Source: Escherichia coli (GTDB lineage Bacteria; Pseudomonadota; Gammaproteobacteria; Enterobacterales; Enterobacteriaceae). Taken from it: a stretch of 64,000 nt of DNA. Below the pieces are notes generated by a model. The model did not search any database. It was not told where the DNA came from and worked only from the letters and a program-made list of their open reading frames with translations. The position numbers and the translations under genes were made by a program. Position 1 is the first letter of the stretch. Each line of letters opens with the position of its first letter. The stretch lies in NCBI GenBank assembly GCA_902500205.1, contig GCA_902500205.1_4868.1; one strand, given 5' to 3'. Shown one piece after another: positions 2,178-60,126 of the stretch.

Positions 2178-4439
2178 CTATCGCGCTTGTGGTAGGAAAA
2201 TGTTCGCGATTTGTCGTGCTGGTATGATATCTAACGCGGCGTTGACGATGCTGCCCTGTGACCAGGCACTTGCCCAGTTCTGCGCCCAGATAGACGCGTT
2301 GATTTTAGCCTGCGCGATACCGTTGGTACGCTCGTAAAGCGTGGCAGCGCCCAACACAGACATAAATTCACTGAACTTGTTATCATCATCAAACACACCA
2401 ATATCGGTTACAATCGGCATGTACATAACGCGTGACAGGTCACGAATAGTTACCTGTATATCACATGACAACGGCAGACCGTCAGCACGCCACCCTAACC
2501 CACCTGTACCAAACTGGAGACTCAAGTTAGTTACCATGGCATTACGCATGGAATAACGACCACGAGAATAACACTCCAGATAGAACGGGTGCGTAAACGA
2601 TTGTTTACCGGTTGCTAACGGGCAAACTGCCGCTAACCAGAACGACAACGGGACAATCAGATCCTGGAACACATCTAAGTCGTTACCCGACCAACAGCGA
2701 AGGGGAATGCTTAGCGAGATATCGTCACCTGAGGTGTCTGAGGAGTCCCACACTTCCGGGAAGTCAATCACTGACGAGTTGTACAGCGACATAATCCCTG
2801 ATAAATGCAAGAAATCGAGTGCGCCTGTAAAGGCGGACTTCAACCCAGTAATGAGACCATCGACTGCGTCGAAACCAGTCTTACCACCAGAGAGGTTTAC
2901 TTCTAAAGAACGTGCTTTCTGTGTGGCGGAGTTAACCGTGCCAGAGATTTCAGGTTCTTTGGTGGTGTTGGAGAACGAACGCCCTACGGTATCACGTCCA
3001 TCAACACGCCAAGTAATCCACTGCGAACCATTGCGTATCTCCGAAGCGATGTTCGAAGTTAACCCATCCATAGCGCCTTCTAAAATATCGATATAGTCTT
3101 TGAAGACGCTACCGACAGATTCTTTCTGGCCTTGGTCCATCCAGTTTTCAATCTTCCCAATGTCGAGATTATTCTCATCCATTGAGTTTGCTTCGGTCTG
3201 ACTTTTAGCAACCTGTGCCTGGTTCTTTTCAACCTGTGCCATACGCTCGGCAAGCTCTTTACGTTGCGCATCACCTTCGTTTTCGAAGTTTTCAGCTTTA
3301 CCTCCTTGTGACTGAGCATCCTGAAGGCTTCCGTTCATCCCTGCTACCAGTTCGTCTTCTTTGTTATCGACGTTTTCAAAACCGGCATCGTACCCTTTAC
3401 CGGCTTTGGCTACGTATTCAAGGTTACGTAAAGAAACCTCGTACTGCGCAGCTTTCTCCAAATGGGTTGTTGAGTACGTCGCTTCCAGATAGAAGTTTCG
3501 CAAACGACGAGCCATGTCCTCTTCGTTACTCGACTCTTTACGAATTTTATCGATGGTTTTCGCCTGGTAGTTGGCTAATGTTTGGTAGCGGTTAATCATT
3601 CGATAGATATCGAACTCACCATCAGCTGTCCAGATTTCTGGCAGCATGGAGTACCACTCTTTACGGTCGCCGTTGTACTTGTTAGCAGTACCGCCTTTCT
3701 CAGACCCATCTACAGCATTAGCAAGCTGGAAAGTCCCTAACACACCCGTTGGCACCAATCGGCGATAAACTAACTGGGTGTTGACCATATTCTGCACAGC
3801 GCGCAGATACAAGTGCATTGTCGGTTTCACGTAGTAGTAGCGAGAAGTCTGCTTGTTCAGCACCATCTTCAACATACGTGGTGTAATTAGAATAACCGCA
3901 AAGGCAACCGTACCTACTGCGGCCCATATTGCTGCGGCGGCAACATACGTCCCCATCGCACGCAACATACCAGGGTAGTCACCTGTGCGCGCCAGATACG
4001 CTAGGTTGGAATCGTACATATTCGCGAAGAATGCAGCGACCCCGATATATCGAGGTTTACCGAAACGACAATGAAGATAAAAACTGTTTTGGTTAATAGC
4101 TTCGTAATAGAAAGTCCCTAAACGATAGGAACCACGTTGGTCTTGACCTTTAACGTACTTTGAGTACGAGCCACGACCTGCATCAGGTTGTGCAAAAGCA
4201 CCTGTTGAACTCGGATCAGCAAACATCGTAAACTGCGGCGGCGCATTTAACGCTTGCGAACCACCCATCGTGGTATCTTCAAACGAGAGCATCGCGTTAG
4301 AGTAACGACGCAAACCCAGGAAGCGCTCATCGCGTTGTGCGGTTGTACCGCCAAACAGGCCGGTTACCCATCCTGAATCTTTTAGTTGTCTTGCTTCCAC
4401 GTAAAACCTCTCTGTAAGATGATTAGGGGGTGTTGCCAC
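2178..4439 (-). CDS. hypothetical large protein (753 aa) with coiled-coil region and one hydrophobic segment
   Basis: GTG start 9 nt downstream of giant gene stop; hydrophobic stretch TYVAAAAIWAAVGTVAFAVILI. Confidence 0.7.
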   Translation of the reverse strand: MATPPNHLTERFYVEARQLKDSGWVTGLFGGTTAQRDERFLGLRRYSNAMLSFEDTTMGGSQALNAPPQFTMFADPSSTGAFAQPDAGRGSYSKYVKGQDQRGSYRLGTFYYEAINQNSFYLHCRFGKPRYIGVAAFFANMYDSNLAYLARTGDYPGMLRAMGTYVAAAAIWAAVGTVAFAVILITPRMLKMVLNKQTSRYYYVKPTMHLYLRAVQNMVNTQLVYRRLVPTGVLGTFQLANAVDGSEKGGTANKYNGDRKEWYSMLPEIWTADGEFDIYRMINRYQTLANYQAKTIDKIRKESSNEEDMARRLRNFYLEATYSTTHLEKAAQYEVSLRNLEYVAKAGKGYDAGFENVDNKEDELVAGMNGSLQDAQSQGGKAENFENEGDAQRKELAERMAQVEKNQAQVAKSQTEANSMDENNLDIGKIENWMDQGQKESVGSVFKDYIDILEGAMDGLTSNIASEIRNGSQWITWRVDGRDTVGRSFSNTTKEPEISGTVNSATQKARSLEVNLSGGKTGFDAVDGLITGLKSAFTGALDFLHLSGIMSLYNSSVIDFPEVWDSSDTSGDDISLSIPLRCWSGNDLDVFQDLIVPLSFWLAAVCPLATGKQSFTHPFYLECYSRGRYSMRNAMVTNLSLQFGTGGLGWRADGLPLSCDIQVTIRDLSRVMYMPIVTDIGVFDDDNKFSEFMSVLGAATLYERTNGIAQAKINASIWAQNWASAWSQGSIVNAALDIIPARQIANIFLPQAR

Positions 4440-22518: not shown

Positions 22519-22541
22519 GAGATATATATTACTTAGGTGAG
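22519..22541 (+). promoter_or_regulatory. recurrent promoter-like motif GAGATATATATTACTTAGGTGAG
   Basis: Member of a 6-copy motif family GATATTA(T/C)CT..GTGA upstream of plus-strand genes. Confidence 0.4.
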
Positions 22542-22591
22542 CGTTACACGTTAACGCTTTAATCGACTATTACCCAGAAGGAGTATTTACA

Positions 22592-36146: not shown

Positions 36147-36190
36147 TAGCCACCTCTCCGAAACTGGAGAGGTGGCATTTTATTTTATTT
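36147..36190. terminator. bidirectional intrinsic terminator
   Basis: Hairpin GCCACCTCTCC-GAAAC-TGGAGAGGTGGC with T-run downstream and A-run upstream. Confidence 0.65.
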
Positions 36191-37561
36191 CTGCAAAGAG
36201 CGGATCAAGAAGTACAACAACAACGCATTACGCAAAGCGGCCAATGCGGCTTCATGGCGGATATGTGTTTCTCGTGCAGCCAGTTTCTCAATCCGTTCAC
36301 GCAACGATAACACGTATGGGTTAGGGGACTTCGAAGCCTGGTACAACGAACGCATACGCAGTAGAACCGTACTCGCATCGTTAAAGTTCAGACGAGAAGT
36401 AACAATTTCGTCGAACGCGTGCGATAGCGTGTCCTCCATGATAGCGTTAATCTCATCACGCTTTTTGCCAAGTGGTAGACTTGCAATATACGCCAGCAAA
36501 GTTTTCAGTGCCGCGGGAGATGCTTTGGGTACTAGCTCCAACACCACTTTTGCTAATTGCTCTTTGTAAAGATTGTTGATATCGTAAGACGCATCAAACA
36601 GATTCTGCTTAGCGATATCCAGTGCACCCACTTTGTCACGGATAATCGACTCGCCATCTAACTCAATTCGGGTTGACTGCGTAATCACACGACTGTTATC
36701 ACGACGCACTTTGTCAAGCACCGCGTAATAGTCCTTCACGGTTTGTTTGGTACGGGTGTTCAGGTCGGTGATAAAACGCAATACCAGGTCTGGCGTATCA
36801 AAACGTTTAACCGCGTCGTAGTTTGGGTACTCCGGAGAACAGAAGTATTCTGAACGCTCCTGCATGTGCAGACCCCAGTTGCCTAAACGACGGATATCGA
36901 ACTTTAACGACAACATCGAGTATGCGGCGTCGGCGGCGGCCATATCGACCGGCTTGGGGAAGAAGTGATAATATATACTGGAGTAGAATTTGAATTGCAG
37001 AAGCGTTACTAACGATACCGCCGCGGCGTGGATTTCACGATCGGCGAATTTCGGCATCATTCGATGTAGAGTATACACCGTAGAGAGGTTATACGGATCA
37101 CCCGCCACTGCCCAGTCGGTGTTAATCGTACCCGATTCTTTAATCATCTCGAACAGATAATCTTCATCCACTTTCAAGACATCTTCAAAAAAGCGGTTAC
37201 GGTCAGAATCGTAGAAACGAATGGTGTGGACGCCTAATAGATTAGACCCTAGCCACTCCACATTGCCTTCACGTTTAAGAATGTTATCCACGTGAAGTTG
37301 AATTTGCTTTGCAAAACGACGATCGATAACGACGTGTTTAAAACATTCGTCAAACACTTTACGTAATCGGTCATTCTTCATGGCTTCTGCAGCAACTACC
37401 AGCCCCATCGGAACGTAGCCGCCAAAACCGTAGTCGTAATACAAGCCCGTAGAATACGTGTCATCGTCGAAGAATGGGTCACGTCCGAATGATTCGACGG
37501 CAACCTTCACTCCGGTATCACGATAACAACCGGCACTGAAATCATAAACCAATTCAGACAT
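36185..37561 (-). CDS. hypothetical protein (458 aa)
   Basis: ATG with AGAGG upstream on minus strand. Confidence 0.8.
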   Translation of the reverse strand: MSELVYDFSAGCYRDTGVKVAVESFGRDPFFDDDTYSTGLYYDYGFGGYVPMGLVVAAEAMKNDRLRKVFDECFKHVVIDRRFAKQIQLHVDNILKREGNVEWLGSNLLGVHTIRFYDSDRNRFFEDVLKVDEDYLFEMIKESGTINTDWAVAGDPYNLSTVYTLHRMMPKFADREIHAAAVSLVTLLQFKFYSSIYYHFFPKPVDMAAADAAYSMLSLKFDIRRLGNWGLHMQERSEYFCSPEYPNYDAVKRFDTPDLVLRFITDLNTRTKQTVKDYYAVLDKVRRDNSRVITQSTRIELDGESIIRDKVGALDIAKQNLFDASYDINNLYKEQLAKVVLELVPKASPAALKTLLAYIASLPLGKKRDEINAIMEDTLSHAFDEIVTSRLNFNDASTVLLRMRSLYQASKSPNPYVLSLRERIEKLAARETHIRHEAALAALRNALLLYFLIRSLQK

Positions 37562-37584
37562 GGCGCTAAACCTCTAAAAATTTA

Positions 37585-37615
37585 CGGATATATGTTATCA
37601 TACTGAGAGTATACC
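37585..37615 (+). promoter_or_regulatory. promoter-like motif (weaker family member) GGATATATGTTATCATACTGAGAG
   Basis: Resembles the GATATTAtCT..GTGA family; lies in a divergent intergenic region. Confidence 0.3.
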
Positions 37616-37633
37616 TGAAGGAGATTTTACCCA

Positions 37634-38767
37634 ATGATGAACTATGAACGTAAGCACGCGTGGCAAGAAAAGCTACGCACGGGACAGATACATTCTGCCC
37701 AACAAGTGAAGATGTGGGTGCTGCCGCACGGCGTCATCTGCGAAATGGTCCAGGTCGGAGGATTACCTATTCTTCGAAATGGTAAATACGATTCGATGAA
37801 CACGGTACTCGCGCGCTTGCTGGCCGATGCAGGCATAATGGGTACCGTGATTTTATATTCAACCGCAACGATTCCCCAGAATCTTTCTCGCTGGTTAACG
37901 CATTGGCTTTCCAATGACCCTGGCGAGGACGATCCGTGGCTACGTTCGATGACAGTGACAACAATGGGTCAACGGCCGACGAAACCCCTCCCATTCCAGG
38001 TCAATGTAATTGAACCAGCTATTCTGGAAGCGGGTGAAGTGTTTGAAGCAATCAAACATCGATCTCGCGATGTTAGCATCAGTCAGTTTCTTATCGAAGC
38101 GAATGATGTGACTTACCGGCTGGAACCTGTACGACGTATGGACGCTCGTATCGTCGACTGCACAGAGTTCGGTTATGTCTTGCGTACACAGGGCAACCAT
38201 ACCTTCCTGGCATCGATGCTCTCTCGCCGCGTGCAGGGACAGTTAGCACACTACAAAGTGTCCCCTGCTGACCTCGTCGGTACCGACGTTAAGGTCGAAT
38301 ACACAATGTTTACCGAAGGGAATCGACTGTGTAATTTTAAGTCTCCGGTAGTCTATCGGAGTAAGGCACTTGATGCCTTAGGCGACCAGAATGTCCCGAC
38401 ATACGATGGCCCCTATCCGTTTAAATCGCAAGCATCTGCAAACCGTGCGCTCCTTACGGTAACTCGGTGTAAACGCGCAGCGATCACACTGACCGACGGG
38501 GAAATTTATGGTAAGGACACTGAGTCTGACGCAAAACTCTTTTCGTTCCGGCGTGGTGTGAAACCTGGATTGTATGCCGCGACGTTTGAAAAGGGGGATG
38601 ACGTCGAGTTCTGGCAGTTCGACAGCGATTTCGCAGTAGATGCGATTGACCCAGATGCGTTAGTGAGTGTCATCACAGACCAAATCTTTTACGCGACGGG
38701 TATGAACCTGCTGGAAATCTTTTTAATGTACGATGCCAGATTACCTTCACAGTCAGTCAAAACGTAA
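37634..38767 (+). CDS. hypothetical protein (377 aa)
   Basis: ATG with AAGGAG upstream. Confidence 0.75.
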   Translation: MMNYERKHAWQEKLRTGQIHSAQQVKMWVLPHGVICEMVQVGGLPILRNGKYDSMNTVLARLLADAGIMGTVILYSTATIPQNLSRWLTHWLSNDPGEDDPWLRSMTVTTMGQRPTKPLPFQVNVIEPAILEAGEVFEAIKHRSRDVSISQFLIEANDVTYRLEPVRRMDARIVDCTEFGYVLRTQGNHTFLASMLSRRVQGQLAHYKVSPADLVGTDVKVEYTMFTEGNRLCNFKSPVVYRSKALDALGDQNVPTYDGPYPFKSQASANRALLTVTRCKRAAITLTDGEIYGKDTESDAKLFSFRRGVKPGLYAATFEKGDDVEFWQFDSDFAVDAIDPDALVSVITDQIFYATGMNLLEIFLMYDARLPSQSVKT

Positions 38768-38777
38768 GGAGCCTCCT

Positions 38778-39287
38778 ATGTTTACTGCGCCAACCATGCG
38801 GGTGGAGCAAGGTCTTAACCTGGTGGTACACGACCAGCGGTTAATCGACCTCTGCGACACAAGCATAATTACTGCGATGATGGACCATAACCCTTTAGGT
38901 GACTACGGAAATACCAGCGAGATTTTGGCTGTTGCTGCCGTCCTCCGTCGTATTTACGGTCAAATAACCATCGTAGATCTCTGTAACTTCATTGACAACC
39001 ACAGAGATTTAACTAAAGGGTTGGTCGCACTTACTCAAGATGGGGTGTCAAGTTTTGACAGTTCTCTTGGTAATTTCCTAGACATCGGTTCCGGGTTCGA
39101 CTCCGGGCTAATGTTCATCACTCGTGAACGCTACGTCGCCGTCTGGGAATTTCTGCAACGCATGGGTGTGCATGTTCCTGCAAAGATCATGCATTACCAA
39201 ACTTACGACCTGAATATTTTCGGGGAGCCAGGGTTATGGATAAAACCAGTACACCTTGGCCTTGATGGCTACACCATCAAGTGTTAA
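38778..39287 (+). CDS. hypothetical protein (about 169 aa)
   Basis: ORF 38733..39287; ATG at 38778 has AGGAG upstream. Confidence 0.65.
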   Translation: MFTAPTMRVEQGLNLVVHDQRLIDLCDTSIITAMMDHNPLGDYGNTSEILAVAAVLRRIYGQITIVDLCNFIDNHRDLTKGLVALTQDGVSSFDSSLGNFLDIGSGFDSGLMFITRERYVAVWEFLQRMGVHVPAKIMHYQTYDLNIFGEPGLWIKPVHLGLDGYTIKC

Positions 39288-39292
39288 GTCAC

Positions 39293-39345
39293 TAGGCGTA
39301 CTCTCTTCGGGGAGTACGCCAATCTTATTTTTTTTATTTTTTTGG
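39293..39345 (+). terminator. intrinsic terminator
   Basis: Hairpin GGCGTACTC-TCTTCGG-GGAGTACGCC followed by TTATTTTTTTTATTTTTTTGG. Confidence 0.7.
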
Positions 39346-39770
39346 TTACTTTTTAACCAACCGGTTAAAGGGGTCTGGGAAGCATCAGAAAACGATTAGG
39401 TGGTATCGACGTAGGGTAGCTCGTTTTTGGCAGTTTATCGTTTTCTAGGGTCTGTTACGTGCGTTTTAGAGGGGGTTATGTATCGAGACAGAGAATTTAT
39501 TTTTGTCGGGGCGAGGAAATTCAGGGAATGGGGATTCAGGATTGTATGTTTTTTAACCAGTTATTAAAAACGCTCTAGAAAGCGCTAGAACGAGATTTAA
39601 CTCAGACCCAGTACACTTGGGTTCCCTATACCGGAAAATCGCGCCAGCGGGCCGCTGAGAGCGCGAGAGAGCCATTCCCGTTTCGGTTCCGAGGTGACGG
39701 TCGCGGCCGGCGACGACGATCACACGTTGGGTAGCACTTCGTGCCATGTCTGGGTGAAAACTGGATCGTT

Positions 39771-39796
39771 CTGTAACCGACACACACTGTCGGTTA
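39771..39796. other. perfect 10-bp stem-loop GTAACCGACA-CACAC-TGTCGGTTAC in ORF-free region
   Basis: Read directly; no T-run downstream. Confidence 0.4.
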
Positions 39797-39905
39797 CTTA
39801 CGAGTTCTTTGGGTTGTTTAATTCACTCTAAAATCCCCCTTAGGGGATAATTTAATCTAATTCTCAAAATTTCTTTTTAAAACAATCACTTAGATTGTTT
39901 TTTAG

Positions 39906-40150
39906 ATTGATCCTGTGGATCGGGTCGAAGACCCTTTCCTTATACGCGTGCGCGTGCGCGCACCCGTATCCTCCAGGATCTTTTAAAATATATAATAATA
40001 TTAAATATAATAATACCTTTAGGTATTATATTTAATTATTATAATTATTTATATAAATAAATATATTAATATATTAAGATCTTAAAACGCGTGCGGGCGC
40101 GCGCGTGATCCTTATTAAGAGATCGTGATCGGACGGAAGACCGAGATCGG
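39906..40150. other. origin-like dyad element: AT-rich core flanked by alternating-GC boxes and 8 GATC sites
   Basis: ACGCGTGCGCGTGCGCGCAC (39944-39963) and CGCGTGCGGGCGCGCGCGTG (40088-40107) flank a 96-bp core of about 95% AT with dyad centre near 40019; 8 GATC in 240 bp. Confidence 0.45.
39981..40076. repeat. AT-rich low-complexity core (ATA/TAA repeats) with central inverted repeat
   Basis: Arms ATAATACC / GGTATTAT around TTTA centre; bounded by GATCTTTTAAAA and AAGATCTTAAAA. Confidence 0.6.
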
Positions 40151-40280
40151 GTACCCTGTGTATTTTTTACGTGGTTTCCCTATCGTGTGTTCAGACCACC
40201 ACTCGATGTCCAAAAACCCATAGCTTCGGTGGTCGCCTCCCTGGTCGGTAGACTCTGACAAGTCGACCCACACCACCAAC

Positions 40281-40303
40281 CCGTCCGGGGACGGATTTTT
40301 ATT
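40281..40303 (+). terminator. terminator-like hairpin plus T-run inside ORF-free region
   Basis: CCGTCCGGGGACGG followed by ATTTTTATT. Confidence 0.35.
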
Positions 40304-40358
40304 CCAACGACAAGCTCCACGAAAATCCCCGCAGAGGGACTCACTGCTGTGTGACTCA

Positions 40359-40398
40359 CCGGCTCCTGGACGCCTACGCCTCGAGCCGGTAATTTTTT
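40359..40398 (+). terminator. terminator-like hairpin plus T-run inside ORF-free region
   Basis: CCGGCTC...GAGCCGG stem followed by TAATTTTTT. Confidence 0.4.
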
Positions 40399-40489
40399 GA
40401 TTACGTGAGTTTGTTGTTATATGCGAATAGCGATTGACCGCGCCAATGGTCCAATCACTTTTTAAACCCTGCACGCTAGGGCTCCAAGT

Positions 40490-40519
40490 CCTGGGATTGA
40501 TACCCAGGACGCTTTTTCG
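40490..40519 (+). terminator. terminator-like hairpin plus T-run inside ORF-free region
   Basis: TCCTGGG-ATTGATA-CCCAGGA followed by CGCTTTTTCG. Confidence 0.35.
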
Positions 40520-41056
40520 AAAATACCTGCCGTGGTGTCTTCGACAAAGCGCAATCTAACACTGCGTGATTTATTATGTTCTGGAAAACTTTCGCCGTGG
40601 AACAGAACCGGTGAGCGTCGGCGGGGATTCCGACAATCACCACCCATTCAGGTACTCGGTAGATAACCGACCTGCCGACGGTGCTACGTCGGGCGTAGTT
40701 CGGTTTGCGAGAGTGTCGAGAAAGTCGACTGCGCACCCATGACAAAATCCGAGTTGACCGTGGCAGCGCCAGAGGACTGGGCAGCGGAGAGACGTCGTTG
40801 AACTTACCTCCGATAGTTATCGCTGATTCCGCTCTGGCGTCGGGCCAAAACTGATTCGAATTCGGCGTTGCGTCGAAAAGGGGTCTGCGTGTAGAACCGC
40901 AGACTTGGGGGATAACTCCAAAGTGGGGTGATCGGATCTTGACGGCTCGGAATAGACGAGAGGGGTGGGTACTCCCGTTGAGAAACGACGGTACCTGGCT
41001 GATTAAAATTTACAGATTCTGCGTGAGGTATGATAAACCAAACGGAGAATTAAACC

Positions 41057-41632
41057 ATGAACTTGTATCGCGTCGGGTTTTACCGAAACGAGATGCCTGA
41101 ATCGGTTTTGGTTGTCTTAGCCGAAAACGAGGAGCAGGCCAAATCCTTCTGGCCGGTTAGCGCAGAGCGTCCAGCGGTTGCGTGCTGCTACGACGGCGCT
41201 GTGTCTACCCCGATGGTTACGCCTGGGGTGGTTCTGAAGCAAGGCCGATGGGAAGATTACTCCCATCCCGGTTTGGAGTTTGTTTCCGAACCTGCCAGAC
41301 ATTCCTGGGAATTTCCCTCAGGCAACACCGAGACGTATTTCGGATTTCAGGTTAAACAACCTTCGACGCTCAAACTGTACCTGGTGTACAGCGACGCCGC
41401 TACCGAAGACTACGTCGATTCCGGAATCATCGTCGGGGCAACAACCCCTGCTGCGGCATTCGCACATTGGGACGGTGATAAACCCGGAATCGTTTCGGTC
41501 TGTGAGCTACCACTTGAAGCCGGTTTGGTTACGAACATCAAGTGTGAGCAAGGCCAGGAGCTGACTTGGATGCGCCAGGATTACCTGACGGAAACGACAT
41601 TCGAATACACACCGAGGAGGGTGACCCAATGA
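41057..41632 (+). CDS. hypothetical protein (191 aa) built from two tandem copies of a roughly 80-aa domain; translationally coupled to HslV-like gene
   Basis: ATG with GGAG upstream; stop TGA overlaps next start (ATGA); N-half and C-half share LY..(D/E)..IV.A.T..AA pattern. Confidence 0.65.
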   Translation: MNLYRVGFYRNEMPESVLVVLAENEEQAKSFWPVSAERPAVACCYDGAVSTPMVTPGVVLKQGRWEDYSHPGLEFVSEPARHSWEFPSGNTETYFGFQVKQPSTLKLYLVYSDAATEDYVDSGIIVGATTPAAAFAHWDGDKPGIVSVCELPLEAGLVTNIKCEQGQELTWMRQDYLTETTFEYTPRRVTQ

Positions 41633-42212: not shown

Positions 42213-42288
42213 AGGAAAGTGACGCAATTGGTAGCGTACCGGTCTCCAAAACCGGCTGTTTAGAGTTCGAGTCTCTACTTTCCTGCCA
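42213..42288 (+). tRNA. tRNA-Trp (anticodon CCA) with encoded 3-prime CCA
   Basis: Hand-folded cloverleaf: 7-bp acceptor AGGAAAG/CTTTCCT, D-arm ACGC/GCGT, anticodon stem CCGGT/ACCGG with loop CTCCAAA, T-arm TAGAG-TTCGAGT-CTCTA, discriminator G then CCA. Confidence 0.85.
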
Positions 42289-43636: not shown

Positions 43637-43706
43637 GGCTTTGTAGCTCAGGTAGGTAGAGCAGCCTCTTCGAGGAAGGTCGCCGGTTCGAGACCGGTCA
43701 AAGCAA
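43637..43706 (+). tRNA. degenerate tRNA-like element (possible pseudo-tRNA)
   Basis: Canonical D-arm (TAGCTCAGGTAGGTAGAGCA) and T-arm (CCGG-TTCGAGA-CCGG) but mismatched anticodon stem, 1-nt variable loop and G1-A72 mismatch. Confidence 0.3.
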
Positions 43707-46168: not shown

Positions 46169-46202
46169 GAGGGAACTTCGGTTCCCTCTTTTTTTCTTTT
46201 TT
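46169..46202 (+). terminator. intrinsic terminator
   Basis: GAGGGAAC-TTCG-GTTCCCTC followed by TTTTTTTCTTTTTT. Confidence 0.7.
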
Positions 46203-46238
46203 CACGACTGCCTCAGAATCTTATAGGAGGAAGTTACC

Positions 46239-46655: not shown

Positions 46656-46722
46656 CTTTTTTACGGCAGGCACCTATCTTGTAGGGAGTCTGTGCTGTAA
46701 TAGATTCCAAAGGAGATGCTCG

Positions 46723-52164: not shown

Positions 52165-52202
52165 ATCCCACTCTTCGGAGTGGGTTATTTTTTTTTCTTT
52201 TT
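52165..52202 (+). terminator. intrinsic terminator closing the operon
   Basis: CCCACTC-TTCGG-AGTGGG followed by TTATTTTTTTTTCTTTTTT. Confidence 0.7.
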
Positions 52203-52251
52203 TCACGTATCCCGCAAGTCTTATAGCTGAGTAAAAACCAAGGGGCCAGAC

Positions 52252-55204: not shown

Positions 55205-56272
55205 TTATTTTTCTTCTAGCTCTGTCATCAACGGGATAATCAAATCGCGTTGGATGAAGTTATAGAAGGATTTGGTCAAACGTGTGAGGACTTTAGAGTC
55301 CACATAACGCGCCAAATCAACCAACATCGTACGTTTGTGTTTCTCCATATTCCCCTGGTTGTATTGAAGACAAAACAGTGCCCAGTACCAGTTCACCATG
55401 TTCTGGTGCCAGGTGTTCTGCAGTGTTTGACCTGGTTCTCGAAAGACAATCAGTTCCAGTGCAGTGTGGCCTTCTTCATCAGGGTGTTGGAAGAACAATG
55501 GGATGTTGTTTAAGACTTGTCCCGGTAACGGGTTGGCAGCCAGTAGTTTACTACGGATGCCTTTTGCGTGCTTCACAGCTAAAGCTTGAAGCGGCGGAAC
55601 AGGAATGACACGTAATGTTTCATCCGGTTCAATCTCTTTCCCGAAGGCTATCGCACGATGTATATTTACAAAGGCGATATCCATGTAGCTCGGCAACATG
55701 CGAGAGATCACATGTCGTTGGAGATACACAGGTGTGGCAATAGGTTCGGTACCGCGACTGTAGTGCTGCTGGCCTTTGACATATTGCCAAAGCAAAGCAA
55801 CCAGGTTGATTTCGATCACCGTAACACCTCGGGGCCGTCCGTCACCGAACTTCCAATTGAGGTTGGTATACTCATGGTAGAGGTAACGGGCGGGGGTGTA
55901 GTCGCGGAACGAAAGGTCTGGATTTACTGGGCGGGCTACGAGAGAGATTACCTCATCTTGGCCCTGGATAAACTTGCTATTAAAGATTTGACCGTACTCA
56001 CCAACAGACGTCAAGCGTAAGGCGTTACCGATCTGAACAAGCTTGCGACGGCAAGCCCATTCGATGTCTTCGTACTCTGGTTCACCGGCATAGCCGATGG
56101 CAGACAACACCTGTTGCAACAAATGGCCATTACCAGCACTGCGATTAAGCTGTTCGAAGTAGTTGCGTATACGCTGGCTGTTGTTTTTTACGTGAGCCGC
56201 TAATGTTATAGCGGAGGGGTCCGTGCTGTGACCCTTTATGGCCACTTGGTTTAACTCGGCTTGGCTGAACAT
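55205..56272 (-). CDS. hypothetical protein (about 355 aa)
   Basis: Track ORF 55205..56293 begins with GTG; ATG at 56272 has TAAGGAG 6 nt upstream. Confidence 0.75.
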   Translation of the reverse strand: MFSQAELNQVAIKGHSTDPSAITLAAHVKNNSQRIRNYFEQLNRSAGNGHLLQQVLSAIGYAGEPEYEDIEWACRRKLVQIGNALRLTSVGEYGQIFNSKFIQGQDEVISLVARPVNPDLSFRDYTPARYLYHEYTNLNWKFGDGRPRGVTVIEINLVALLWQYVKGQQHYSRGTEPIATPVYLQRHVISRMLPSYMDIAFVNIHRAIAFGKEIEPDETLRVIPVPPLQALAVKHAKGIRSKLLAANPLPGQVLNNIPLFFQHPDEEGHTALELIVFREPGQTLQNTWHQNMVNWYWALFCLQYNQGNMEKHKRTMLVDLARYVDSKVLTRLTKSFYNFIQRDLIIPLMTELEEK

Positions 56273-58414: not shown

Positions 58415-59923
58415 GTGAGAAAGGTACCAAAATTCTACGGAATATCCGGCCGGTTGGTTAGTCAGGATAACTATTTGTCCGATTTGCAAATAGAAGCTGC
58501 TGCCAAAGGTATTAAACCACCCACTATTATTAACGATGTCGCCGTTAACGGGGATGCGATCGAGGTTGCTGAACTTATCGATCGCATGGTACAGAACAGA
58601 ATCGTTGACGAAGAACTGAACTCTGCACCGATTTGTAGTTTGGATTGTCCGGCACCGATCGCGCATCGTTACAATCTCGGTTGTAAGTGTCCGACGTGTG
58701 GCTATGTTGTAACTGAACATCGAATTGAATCCGATGTCTGGTTACGTGCACCCGATGAAATGGGTAACTTCGTCAACCCACGATTCTGGGCAATGTTCAA
58801 TGCTTTCTTTAATAGCAAGTTGAAGAAGTTTGAACGTAACAAGGTCACTATCGAACGCGGTAATGACTTGATGATGTGGATGATTGACCCGTATTACCGT
58901 ATAGAAGAACCAGACGGTAAACGCGCACATGCTGTGAAACGTGTATTGGAAGAACATGGTTTCGTTCGTGGCTTGCGCAATCTGGTTGATAACCACGTTA
59001 GTATCTTTAACATCCTTACCACGCCAGAAGCCTGGAAGGAAATCTTCGCACCTAATCGGCATAACGCCGCTGAAGGTGAACGCTTACGTTTACAATGGAA
59101 GGAGCTATTCGAAACGCAACGCCATGCATTCTTCCCAAGACACTTACCGCTAATCTCCTCTAAGCTTATCGTTACTGAGGAAGGTCGTCGTGGTGTCATG
59201 GTAGACCCAGTGTTCACGGGTGCTATCGATGCGGTGAAAAATATCGCGTTACTTTATACGCGGCGTAAAGCGATCGAACCACGTTTTCTGATTAGTCGCG
59301 CTTTGAAAGCCAACCGTCAGTTAACGTACTTCCACATGGACTTCCGTCGTGAGTCTATGGAAGGTAAACCGGGTGACTATCGTGCGAAATTGGGTTCTAC
59401 CCATATCCCATTCGGTGGTCGTGCAACCATCTCACCTATCTCAGAACCACACGATGCCTGGAAGTTAAAAGCACCATGGCGTTGGATGGTTGGGTTGATG
59501 TCGACCCACATCGAGAACAAACTGCTACGACGGGGTTATTCGTCACGGCAATGTGAACGTATCGTTGCAAAAGCGGCAATGCAGTATGACCCGCTTGTAG
59601 ATGAAATCTTTAAAGAACTGATTCGTGAATCCCCAGGCGGTCTTGGGATCATGGTCATACCGCTACGTAACCCAACGCTGGTACAGTTGTCTATTCAAAC
59701 GCTGTACATCGATGAAGTTGTTACCGATGTTAACCAGTGTTCGCTGCGTATCTCTGACCGTGTGATCAAGATGGCTAACGGTTCGAAAAGAGCCCCATCG
59801 GACGGGAAACCTCTGATGCGTATTCTCCTGAAATGCTGGGAAACCCTAAAGCGTATCTACCAGAAATGGGGACGAAAGTCTGAAACAACAGATACGATGG
59901 CCTACGCTAAACAATACTGCTAA
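58415..59923 (+). CDS. RNAP beta-prime-like N-terminal subunit, 5-prime exon (frame reads on into candidate intron before stopping)
   Basis: Zinc-ribbon pattern CSLDCPAPIAHRYNLGCKCPTCG near residue 73-95; LRNPTLVQLSIQTLY resembles beta-prime NRAPTLHRLGIQAF; NADFDGD absent from this ORF. Confidence 0.75.
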   Translation: MRKVPKFYGISGRLVSQDNYLSDLQIEAAAKGIKPPTIINDVAVNGDAIEVAELIDRMVQNRIVDEELNSAPICSLDCPAPIAHRYNLGCKCPTCGYVVTEHRIESDVWLRAPDEMGNFVNPRFWAMFNAFFNSKLKKFERNKVTIERGNDLMMWMIDPYYRIEEPDGKRAHAVKRVLEEHGFVRGLRNLVDNHVSIFNILTTPEAWKEIFAPNRHNAAEGERLRLQWKELFETQRHAFFPRHLPLISSKLIVTEEGRRGVMVDPVFTGAIDAVKNIALLYTRRKAIEPRFLISRALKANRQLTYFHMDFRRESMEGKPGDYRAKLGSTHIPFGGRATISPISEPHDAWKLKAPWRWMVGLMSTHIENKLLRRGYSSRQCERIVAKAAMQYDPLVDEIFKELIRESPGGLGIMVIPLRNPTLVQLSIQTLYIDEVVTDVNQCSLRISDRVIKMANGSKRAPSDGKPLMRILLKCWETLKRIYQKWGRKSETTDTMAYAKQYC

Positions 59924-60126
59924 CGGTTGTGATAATGGGTAATCAGCAGCGAAGCCTCGTGAGAGGAACGTTCAACGACTATCGCTGAAATGCGAGTAGG
60001 GGTCCCAGTGGACTTCGAAGTGGGAGAACACCTAAGGCGATAGCTATGGTGAAGATATAGTCTGTGCCTTATCGAGAGATAAGGAGGGTGTCTTAGCACA
60101 CCTGCTGTATACGGAAACGGTATACG
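59762..60126 (+). mobile_element. candidate group I self-splicing intron (no internal ORF); boundaries approximate
   Basis: Elements resembling group I Q, R and S in order: AATCAGCAGC (59941), GTTCAACGACTATC (59970), GAAGATATAGTC (60051); GACTAT/ATAGTC can pair as P7; GNRA-capped hairpin CCTTATC-GAGA-GATAAGG (60067-60084). Confidence 0.6.

Follow-up and report, generated by a model that had tools for sequence, protein, structure and literature searches.

A conserved gene-free module with probable plus-strand structured RNAs beside an origin-like element in SPN3US-like jumbo phages

Introduction

The stable RNAs called species 1 and species 2, from the tRNA region of phage T4, are small, have no known function and lie beside the phage tRNA genes, with which they are co-transcribed and processed from the same precursor. 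Phage T4 also possesses the origins oriF and oriG, in which a middle promoter is combined with a downstream unwinding element, and ColE1, with its RNA II and RNA I, is a transcription-primed origin. GOLLD and ROOL are large ornate RNAs of phages and prophages, which constitute Rfam families and whose nanocages have been seen by cryo-electron microscopy; GOLLD has been described in terms similar to those used below, namely phage location, proximity to tRNA genes and a contrast between its 3' and 5' parts (10.1101/2024.12.08.627333). In the giant phages phiKZ and 201phi2-1, small RNAs (sRNAs) have been mapped by ONT-cappable-seq, among them sRNA005 and an sRNA in gp182's 5'UTR (5' untranslated region); the start site is closely followed by a terminator, and the position is conserved between genera (PMC11512511). 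Here, we analyze a window of 64,000 nucleotides (contig GCA_902500205.1_4868.1 of an Escherichia coli assembly; all positions are those of this window unless another genome is named), and in particular the gap without open reading frames (ORFs) at 39288-41056, which is flanked on both sides by plus-strand genes, and we compare it with these systems.

The window belongs to an SPN3US-like (Seoulvirus) nucleus-forming jumbo phage. About 30 Seoulvirus genomes, including SPN3US and the SPLA and SPFM series, are 95-99% identical to it over 39200-41200, and a metagenome-assembled contig of 241.8 kb is identical over the compared part. Transcription in these phages, which are phiKZ-like nucleus-forming jumbo phages, is carried out by their own virion and non-virion multisubunit RNA polymerases (PMC7598289; PMC13282480). 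An earlier note on this DNA had drawn attention to three terminator-like hairpins in the gap and proposed that they end short noncoding transcripts. All three plus-strand units of hairpin and T-run are present, at slightly refined coordinates: T1 at 40281-40303, T2 at 40358-40398 and T3 at 40488-40519. We consider it reasonably probable that they belong to a conserved cluster of plus-strand noncoding RNA genes, with two transcription units (RNA-A and RNA-B), situated to the right of an origin-like element. The note's proposal thus holds as far as noncoding structured RNA is concerned, and is not supported as far as three equivalent transcript ends are concerned, since T1 is weak and the U-tract of T3 lies inside a covarying helix, H4. 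The conserved structure also runs on to about 41000, far past the coordinates given in the note (40110-40520). The features of RNA-A and RNA-B, the terminators and the promoter matches P1, P2 and P4 discussed below all lie on the plus strand.

A Conserved Module without Genes

The part of the gap without a conserved ORF measures ~1.77 kb in the window. Its counterpart in SPN3US is a gap of 1716 bp (239883-240413 plus 1-1185), which spans the arbitrary start of the record and is the largest ORF-free gap of that 240-kb genome; the next largest measure 927 and 816 bp. The RefSeq and GenBank annotations of the relatives place no coding sequence in the stretch. The longest open frame (40115-40474, minus strand, 119 aa) carries frameshifts or stops in phages that are 95-98% identical, and the claim that the region holds no credible ORF is borne out. 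Protein coding, whether by this frame or by the small ORFs annotated in some relatives, was rejected on the ground that the frames are not conserved.

Sensitive blastn recovers the whole block 39330-41001 in Salmonella phage SPAsTU (70.5% identity) and in Erwinia phage pEa_SNUABM_29 (67.5% identity; hereafter pEa29), and in both phages additional genes have been inserted precisely at the two borders of the block. Parts of it are also present in Erskinevirus phages (phiEaH2, Asesino, Stratton), in Machinavirus (Huxley, ChrisDB, Caitlin, SNUABM_4) and in Wellingtonvirus (Kwan, Wellington). Pattern scans of IMG/VR and metagenomes yielded further relatives from the same clade only, which brought the distinct versions of the most conserved part to 21. 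These comparisons indicate that the gap is conserved as a single module across Seoulvirus, Erskinevirus, Machinavirus and Wellingtonvirus phages.

A search of 39200-41150 with the 4227 Rfam models, at E values up to 10, returned only chance-level matches to miRNAs and sRNAs, and at the gathering threshold the whole window contained no match to GOLLD or ROOL. In the literature searched, no paper describing the region was found. Judged by its sequence, the module probably encodes a structured noncoding RNA that represents a new family, belonging to no Rfam family.

Conservation at the Level of RNA Structure

Between 37000 and 43500, a terminator scan lists 11 terminator-like sites, against 6.4 +/- 2.0 expected. 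With a loose scan, the density in SPN3US is 0.87 sites per kb for each strand; ~0.36 sites are expected in 410 bp, where 2 were found in addition to T2, which the terminator scan missed solely through its 8-nt loop limit. Folding z-scores are -3.5 for 40423-40519, -6.5 for 40486-40555 (T3 plus H4) and -2.1 for 40306-40399. Pattern counts alone are no more than suggestive of a genuine cluster of hairpins; among the sequences compared, it is the conservation of the hairpins in relatives, accompanied by compensatory changes, that provides the decisive evidence. The plus-strand RNA structures persist in phages that are 67-80% identical and beyond, which answers in the affirmative the question, raised with the earlier note, of whether the hairpins are conserved at all.

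Covariation was assessed in the alignments A3 (12 phages), A4 (7 phages) and A6, the last made with the covariance model R1. In 40421-40551, where the alignment was fitted to the model and is hence biased toward the structure, 96.8% of the cells are paired, as against 83.6% in shuffles (none of 500 shuffles is as high), and 17 of 35 pairs have changed on both sides; controls with slid partners reach at most 52% paired cells and at most 5 such pairs. R1 was built from Seoulvirus alone and nevertheless finds the Erskinevirus copies with E values of 1e-13 to 1e-15 and the Machinavirus-type copies with 3e-6 to 4e-4. Over the entire stretch 40160-41010, RNAalifold on seven sequences proposes 196 pairs, or 178 after removal of three doubtful long-range helices. 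The paired cells amount to 91.8%, against at most 44.6% when the partners are slid by 1-3 columns, and 49 of the 178 pairs have changed on both sides, against 5-14 in the slid controls; as the structure was derived from the same alignment, the contrast in double changes is the more trustworthy figure.

The strand can be read from the same alignments. In the proposed pairs, G.U cells outnumber A.C cells by 177:21, 102:8 and 37:5, and RNAalifold energies are better for the plus strand in all four alignments compared, for instance -77.0 versus -57.2 and -395 versus -342 kcal/mol. The excess of G.U together with the better folding of the plus strand excludes a purely DNA-level explanation and indicates a plus-strand RNA. 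Taken together, the alignments indicate that about 40160-41000 is conserved at the level of RNA structure, on the plus strand.

The Proposed RNA-B: T3, H4 and the 3' Domain

The 5' part of RNA-B contains two internal hairpins, GAUUG…CAAUC at 40433-40457 (helix 1), in which 6 of 7 pairs have changed on both sides, and CCCUG-CACGC-UAGGG at 40467-40481 (helix 2), with 2 of 5, both counted in the covariance-model-based alignment. In close relatives, the substitutions in these hairpins sit in the loops. They are followed by T3 (40488-40519), whose 8-bp stem GTCCTGGG-ATTGATA-CCCAGGAC with a 7-nt loop (40488-40510; -13.8 kcal/mol) runs into GCUUUUUCG, with the tail GCTTTTTCGA and a U-tract of the pattern GC-T5. 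In the same alignment, 4 of 8 pairs of T3 have changed on both sides and 98.9% of the cells are paired. An equivalent of T3 is found in 16 of 16 lineages, each time as a hairpin followed by (G)CUUUUUCGA(R), that is, CUUUUUCGAR, and the stems at this position are wholly different by lineage (GUCCUGGG, CACCCUGG, CGCCUCGG, GCCCAG, GCCCCC). The possibility that CTTTTTCGA is a phage-specific terminator signal was considered and rejected. It is not a general terminator tail in this genome, where TTTTTCGA occurs 12 times against 8.2 expected and just one other copy follows a hairpin, so that its invariance reflects the RNA element itself.

The invariant U-tract of T3, GCUUUUUCGA, is also the 5' arm of H4 (40511-40550), a hairpin of 15 bp in which three 5-bp segments are parted by single-nucleotide bulges. 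Five of its 15 pairs have changed on both sides, with 97.8% of the cells paired, again in the covariance-model-based alignment. H4 can form only in RNA that extends past T3, and thus the RNA under selection would read through T3. T3 is universal in this group of phages, and the reading that suits it best is that of an internal attenuator or a structural element within RNA-B. Right after H4 stands the invariant CUAACAC (40556-40562), which occupies the same relative position in 12 lineages.

The central part of RNA-B (40578-40860) was folded by RNAalifold on 7 sequences and contains the helices GUUCUG/CAGAAC, GGUGAGCG…/…UCACC, GGUACUCGG/CCGAGU..ACC and UGGCAGCGCCAGAG/CUCUGGCG..GCCA; helices 13-21 together include 21 pairs that have changed on both sides. 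It leads to a universal 3' domain (40860-41002), which was examined independently, in a sequence-only MAFFT alignment of 18 distinct lineages. This domain comprises AUUCGGCGUUGCGUCG, the helix GUCUGCG/CGCAGAC (40883-40904), a small CUCC hairpin, the invariant CUCG-GAA(U)AGA-CGAG (40946-40960), and a terminal helix (40962-41000), whose cap is a conserved GNGA tetraloop, here the GNRA loop GAGA (40980-40983). Across the 18 lineages, 94.2% of the cells in the domain are paired, against at most 48% with slid partners. In the terminal helix, 8 of 13 pairs have changed on both sides and 98.7% of the cells are paired; one example pair is C-G in 7 lineages, A-U in 5, G-C in 4 and G-U in 2. Several lineages have a T6 run and the promoter match P4 directly after this helix. 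A long-range pairing of 40433-40445 with 40867-40880, proposed by RNAalifold, was dropped, as an ungapped complement search gave no consistent partner where the 3' segment differs. The succession of T3, H4, CUAACAC and 3' domain forms the core of RNA-B and is universal across the clade.

The Proposed RNA-A: T1, T2 and an Invariant Segment

RNA-A is limited to Seoulvirus and Erskinevirus, and Machinavirus-type lineages bear other units of hairpin and U-run in its place. T1 (40281-40303) has a 5-bp stem, CCGTC/GACGG (40281-40294), with the loop CGGG and the tail ATTTTTATT reaching to 40303; its U-tract follows the pattern A-T5-A-TT. The hairpin falls below the cut-off of -7 kcal/mol used here, and the terminator scan lists it nonetheless. 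Relatives retain the T-run and the CAACGA that comes next, and the preceding stem is non-homologous between genera: pEa29 has a long stem of -27.3 kcal/mol at this position, and Erskinevirus has GCCACUC…GAGUGGC. T1 may be a weak, possibly partial terminator inside RNA-A.

Further on, a small hairpin, UCCC-CGCAGA-GGGA (40326-40339), was recognized by eye on A3. Its stem reads GCCCC/GGGGC in pEa29 and GCGAC/GUCGC in Erskinevirus, with a loop that stays similar; it was left out of the pair counts, since RNAalifold pairs those columns otherwise. Between this hairpin and T2 lies the invariant and apparently single-stranded segment CUGCUGUGUG (40344-40353). All 12 sequences of A3 contain GCTGTGTG here and 11 of the 12 the full CTGCTGTGTG, and UGCUGUGU also precedes the T3 homologue in Machinavirus-type lineages. 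The segment is a candidate interaction site. No exact complementary 10-mer to CUGCUGUGUG exists elsewhere in the SPN3US genome, and the 7-mer TGCTGTG is not enriched in the phage genome. The RNA that would follow two of the strict promoter-like sites described below (46679, 56206) carries GGAG…GUGCUGU, in common with CUGCUGUGUG.

T2 (40358-40398) has an 8-bp stem, ACCGGCTC/GAGCCGGT (40358-40390), which continues through a 2x2 internal loop into an upper stem (-18.8 kcal/mol in all) and is followed by AA and T6 (40393-40398). Its closing pair is A-U, U-A or C-G depending on the Seoulvirus lineage, and at the seventh pair U-A is replaced by C-G. A strong hairpin followed by T6-T9 occupies this position in each lineage; that of Erskinevirus is a different G+C hairpin with T7-T9. 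The T-run of T2 is at the same time the T-run of the promoter match P2, a layout that recurs at the terminator-promoter junctions 46189/46197 and 52188/52198 of the window. Because the next promoter match starts in this T-run, T2 would lie at the end of a transcription unit, and it is likely to be the 3' end of RNA-A, a true terminator fused to P2.

Promoter-like Sites of a Middle-Type Class

A strict pattern, TTTTTT(N)ACG-N12-14-TTRTAG, has 4 copies in the window against 0.01 expected; these copies (46197-46226, 46657-46684, 52198-52226, 56184-56211) stand ahead of genes that include a DNA polymerase gene. A relaxed class, T5+ N0-4 AC N14-16 T(A/G)T(A)G, has 24 matches in SPN3US against 5.7 +/- 1.9 in Markov-1 simulated genomes. 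Eighteen of the 24 lie on the plus strand, mostly 10-60 nt ahead of a start codon. The genes behind the matches serve for the most part replication and nucleotide metabolism; genes for a DNA polymerase, a DprA-like protein and thymidylate kinase are among them, as are those for an SMC-like protein and a 3'-5' exoribonuclease. The class resembles the middle and late promoters of phiKZ, in which TATG overlaps the start site and an AT-rich element lies around -24 (PMC7598289). Features of this type are present in P1 and P2, which both read T-run-AC-N15-T(A/G)TG.

P1 (40163-40189; TTTTTTAC-N15-TGTG) lies 80 bp to the right of the origin-like element. It is conserved in both Seoulvirus and Erskinevirus and has neither an ORF nor a ribosome-binding site after it. 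P2 (40393-40423; TTTTTTGATTAC-N15-TATG) lies between T2 and T3 and is likewise followed by no ORF. Its GTTATATGCGAA is nearly invariant in Seoulvirus and Erskinevirus, TATGCGAA is identical in 12 of 12 A3 sequences, and Wellingtonvirus-type lineages have an analogous hairpin-T-run-N-TATG upstream of the T3 homologue. The positions of P1 and P2 agree with the earlier suggestion that transcription would proceed rightward from the side of the origin-like element. P4 (41009-41032) is a degenerate TTTAC-N15-TATG, recognized by eye, before the ATG at 41057; in 7 further lineages, a full match (T5-6 AC-N15-TGTG) stands at this place. None of the lineages has a class match between T3 and the 3' domain.

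The P1/P2 class is distinct from AGATATATATTACYTAGGTGAG, a likely consensus of early promoters of the virion RNA polymerase, which was derived here. SPN3US has 11 sites with at most 6 mismatches to it, all on the plus strand, and none of them is in the module. Such sites are located at 22522-22543 in the window and at 4427, 56294, 65413, 94239, 113986, 165687, 223277 and others in SPN3US; several are followed by a conserved leader, AATCGACTATTAATCTAAAGG.

Two Proposed Transcription Units and Their Alternatives

The comparisons establish the sequence elements, how far they are conserved, their covariation and the strand. The promoter use, transcript ends and timing that we infer are as follows. 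RNA-A and RNA-B would each be driven by the phage's own RNA polymerase, probably the non-virion, middle-class enzyme, from promoters of the form T-run–AC–N15–T(A/G)TG. RNA-A would start near 40189 (P1) and end at T2 after ~210 nt, possibly being stopped in part at T1 to give a product of ~115 nt, and would bear the single-stranded CUGCUGUGUG. RNA-B would start at G40423 (P2). T3 would be at most a partial terminator or attenuator of it, with a short product of ~97 nt, and the conserved product would pass T3, whose U-tract then pairs into H4. A structured region of ~480 nt would follow T3, of which ~450 nt past CUAACAC would be a heavily base-paired body, and RNA-B would end at the GNRA-capped terminal helix at ~41000, with ~580 nt in total, the promoter of the downstream gene coming next. 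As to the role, our best guess is a stable structured RNA that acts in trans as a scaffold or partner for a protein or for ribosome- or tRNA-related factors; that the RNAs are expressed together with replication genes is likewise a best guess. They do not look like classical base-pairing sRNAs.

A bolder version of this proposal, which we offer tentatively and hold to be doubtful, is that 40423-41000, maybe from 40189 onward, is an undescribed class of large ornate RNA, universal to the clade of enterobacterial nucleus-forming jumbo phages (Seoulvirus, Erskinevirus, Machinavirus, Wellingtonvirus and metagenomic relatives), and that it is similar in kind to GOLLD and ROOL without being related to them in sequence. 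It would be coupled to what is possibly the first recognizable origin of these phages, and T3 and H4 would act as a switch between a short and a long isoform.

Several observations weigh against the two-unit proposal. The 5' half of RNA-A (40185-40305) and the stretch 40579-41002 have unremarkable folding z-scores, of -0.4 and -1.4. The structures behind two of the three covariation counts were derived from, or fitted to, the same alignments, and covariation of a terminal hairpin is equally expected of a plain terminator. The promoter class was defined here through pattern enrichment, not by experimental mapping; when only the window is considered, a simpler pattern matches 7 times, at 4 sites, where 1.44 +/- 1.51 are expected; 1 of 100 shuffles reaches as many, and the signal there is weak. 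No transcriptome of SPN3US or of any other Seoulvirus was found in the literature searched. A covarying long-range helix around T2 (40306-40317 with 40407-40418), in which 2 pairs have changed on both sides, is a hint that some of the RNA crosses T2 and P2 as well. In addition, the conserved TATG at 40575-40578 could be the separate start of a long RNA, in which case T3 would be a real end.

This last point belongs to the alternative that there are three separate or nested short sRNAs, ending at T1, T2 and T3 and regulating host or phage mRNAs in trans by base pairing, with an unrelated element beyond T3 that has its own start. Each unit does consist of a hairpin and a U-run at a conserved position, and 40423-40519 has the classic layout of a conserved 5' end, two hairpins and a terminator, as well as its low z-score; furthermore, an invariant single-stranded segment stands before T2, and sRNAs have been reported in the related phiKZ and 201phi2-1 (PMC11512511). 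However, H4 covaries and can form only if T3 is read through, the U-tracts of T5, T6 and T5 are short compared with the T7-T9 common at the operon-end terminators of this genome, and the phage genome offers no complementary target for the invariant 10-mer. The TATG after CUAACAC, which could start the downstream RNA, has no T-run of the kind that marks the promoter class, and Huxley-type lineages do not possess it. We regard separate sRNAs as unlikely.

The opposite simplification would make the whole of 40189-41000 a single ornate RNA of ~0.6-0.85 kb, similar to GOLLD or ROOL, in which the units of hairpin and U-run are architectural and none is a transcript end. Covarying helices are found across the entire 850 nt, the U-tract of T3 is base-paired, and the T2 unit is enclosed by the long-range helix mentioned above. 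The universal 3' domain beside a more variable 5' region, the GNRA tetraloop, the location in a phage and the tRNA-Trp gene 1.2 kb downstream would also suit such an RNA. Nevertheless, T2 and P2 have exactly the arrangement seen where a terminator meets a promoter between operons of protein genes. Machinavirus and Wellingtonvirus lineages lack the RNA-A part or have something else in its place, so that it behaves as a separable unit; the helix enclosing T2 is broken in Asesino, and other lineages gave no sign of the pairing between 40433-40445 and 40867-40880. A single RNA is, in our view, quite improbable.

The Origin-like Element and the Left Half of the Module

The element to the left of the two proposed units (39905-40135) consists of an AT core, GC-rich hairpins and a cluster of GATC sites. 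The core is a palindromic stretch of ~100 bp of nearly pure A+T (39978-40080), and it is flanked by alternating purine-pyrimidine GC-rich hairpins at 39942-39969 and 40087-40106. The flanks of the element, …CAGGATCTTTTAA and GTGATCCTTATTAAGAGAT, are invariant. In SPN3US, the AT island is 111 bp long and the largest of the 240-kb genome, the next measuring 40 bp; the densest GATC window of that genome is also found here, with 8 sites per 250 bp against 4 in the next, and GATC is depleted genome-wide (489 versus 939 expected). The element has been kept in 14 of 15 lineages, and all genera examined possess it. The arms of the central palindrome covary (TACCT/AGGTA, ATCCC/GGGAT, ATATC/GATAT).

The AT-rich element resembles a DNA unwinding region and may be a candidate for a replication origin. 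The GC skew of the whole genome was tried as a pointer to the origin and proved uninformative, as it tracks the direction of transcription, and no origin of these phages is described in the literature searched. Early promoters within the AT-rich core were also considered and rejected: there is no site of the early consensus, to which the central palindrome is merely loosely similar. Many deposited genomes begin in or beside the AT core (39873, 40008-40010, 40071-40080), including the records of SPN3US, Proteus phage 7, EC001, JN03, SEGD1, SPFM2, SPFM16 and SPFM17. Such starts may be due to assembly breaks at the AT palindrome or to a copied convention.

Under a third alternative, the transcripts would be associated with this candidate origin and would prime or regulate replication at the AT-rich, GATC-dense element, in the manner of the R-loops of T4 oriF/oriG or of ColE1 RNA II/RNA I. 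In its favor, the largest AT island and the densest GATC cluster lie in the module and are conserved in all genera examined, genes for replication and nucleotide metabolism have matches of the same promoter class, and the literature searched describes no origin. Yet P1 and P2, which are located downstream of the AT-rich core, are directed away from it, no class match on either strand points into the core, a primer has no need of extensive tertiary-style structure such as the GNRA loop and the invariant loops, and the AT-rich element is itself a putative origin. This makes origin-associated transcripts, to our mind, decidedly unlikely.

Conserved noncoding DNA to the left of the AT-rich element (39330-39900), here called Region A, contains hairpins and repeats and no match to the promoter class. 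Two structures that had been pointed out near the hairpin cluster lie in it. The perfect 10-bp stem-loop is GTAACCGACA-CACAC-TGTCGGTTAC at 39773-39797, some 2 nt from where it had been put, and its stem shows a compensatory A-T to T-A change in pEa29; the palindrome, ATCCCC-CTTA-GGGGAT with arms of 6 bp, is also present, at 39833-39848. Two repeats occur in two copies each, ACGT(A/T)GGGTAGC at 39409-39420 and 39724-39735, and TTTTTAACCA at 39349 and 39550.

Module Borders and Neighboring Genes

The left border of the module is formed by T0 (39295-39344), the strong terminator of the upstream operon, with an 11-bp stem and a T8-A-T7 tail. In SPAsTU and pEa29, T0 is parted from the module by the extra genes located there. 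At the right border, the window and SPLA5c have a 191-aa gene (41057-41632) without a PHROG or Pfam family; this gene is absent from SPN3US, in which an HslV-like gene directly follows the module. The borders of the module are hot spots for gene gain and loss.

These borders bear on a fourth alternative, in which the region would be a long cis-acting leader with T1-T3 as serial attenuators, controlling the downstream operon (the hypothetical gene, the HslV-like peptidase gene and tRNA-Trp) by antitermination. The region is directly upstream of these genes and on the same strand, serial weak terminators are typical of attenuation, and antitermination has been proposed for 201phi2-1 (PMC11512511). 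On the other hand, in most lineages the separate promoter match P4 stands between the RNA and the first gene, the first downstream gene varies by phage and insertions at the border leave the module undisturbed, and the T6 run after the 3' terminal helix in several lineages suggests a stop; a cis-acting leader is accordingly very improbable. That there is no RNA at all, the hairpins being DNA features such as cruciforms or protein-binding palindromes, or a small protein being encoded instead, is scarcely credible: the neighboring element is indeed palindromic DNA and the minus strand does hold a 119-aa ORF, but the symmetry of duplex DNA leaves the G.U excess and the better plus-strand folding unexplained, the stems covary despite fully diverged sequences, and the ORF is disrupted in 95-98% identical relatives.

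Upstream of the module, 36185-39287 contains three genes of unassigned function, encoding proteins of 458 aa (minus strand) and of 377 and 169 aa (plus strand), which belong to the function-unknown PHROGs phrog_2921, phrog_8136 and phrog_9731. No Pfam or PDB relatives of the three proteins were found. The genes for the 377-aa and 169-aa proteins lie just upstream of the module in annotated relatives of all four genera. The proteins of this group of genes are candidates for acting on the module. Downstream, the tRNA-Trp gene is located at 42213-42288, 1.2 kb from the module. A weak tRNA-like match (Rfam tRNA, 36.4 bits), not called by ARAGORN, follows at 43637-43706; its counterpart is labeled 'tRNA-OTHER' in SPN3US and overlaps a hypothetical minus-strand ORF. 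A group I intron (Rfam RF00028, 69.4 bits, E 1.6e-15) is present on the plus strand at 59763-60084.

Significance and Comparison with Known Systems

Jumbo phages of the chimallivirus type are intensively studied, while their noncoding RNAs are barely known and a replication origin is yet to be defined for them. In SPN3US-like genomes, the largest region without genes now appears as a conserved module, in which an element rich in AT and GATC is joined to covariation-supported RNA genes with phage-type promoter matches. The coordinates, helices and targets for compensatory mutation given here make two questions testable in the tractable pair of SPN3US and Salmonella, namely what part a large or stable phage RNA plays in a nucleus-based infection, and where replication starts. 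The module also illustrates that 'terminator-like' hairpins in phage intergenic DNA can belong to longer RNAs, which matters for automated annotation.

With plain intrinsic terminators, T1-T3 have in common a G+C-rich hairpin that is followed by a T-run within 0-2 nt, and T2 sits at a terminator-promoter junction. They differ in their U-tracts of 5-6 nt, against the T7-T9 that are common at the operon ends of this genome, and in that the U-tract of T3 lies inside a conserved downstream helix, with a tail whose invariance is unrelated to termination. The sRNAs of phiKZ and 201phi2-1, two phages that are not among the 63 blastn relatives of the module, resemble it as short noncoding transcripts of related giant phages. 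They are, however, mostly products of premature termination in the 5'UTRs of protein genes and have been mapped experimentally, whereas the module is a stand-alone gene-free region of 1.7 kb and is more structured. From species 1 and 2 of T4 it is distinguished by the two protein-coding genes and the promoter of their own that separate it from tRNA-Trp. It shares with T4 oriF/oriG and ColE1 the middle-type promoter matches beside an AT-rich, easily unwound element and the adjoining structured RNA; in contrast to oriF/oriG, the AT-rich core has P1 and P2 on its right, both of them directed away from it, and no class match faces the core, and in contrast to ColE1, no antisense partner is evident at the module.

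The likeness to GOLLD and ROOL is that here, too, a heavily base-paired noncoding RNA of several hundred nucleotides is apparently encoded by a phage near a tRNA gene. It is a likeness in kind only, resting on 178 proposed pairs, 49 of them changed on both sides, and on the tRNA-Trp gene 1.2 kb downstream. The RNA would be smaller (~580 nt if it starts at P2) and has no Rfam match. In addition, it resides in virulent, nucleus-forming jumbo phages of enterobacteria, where it lies beside an origin-like element.

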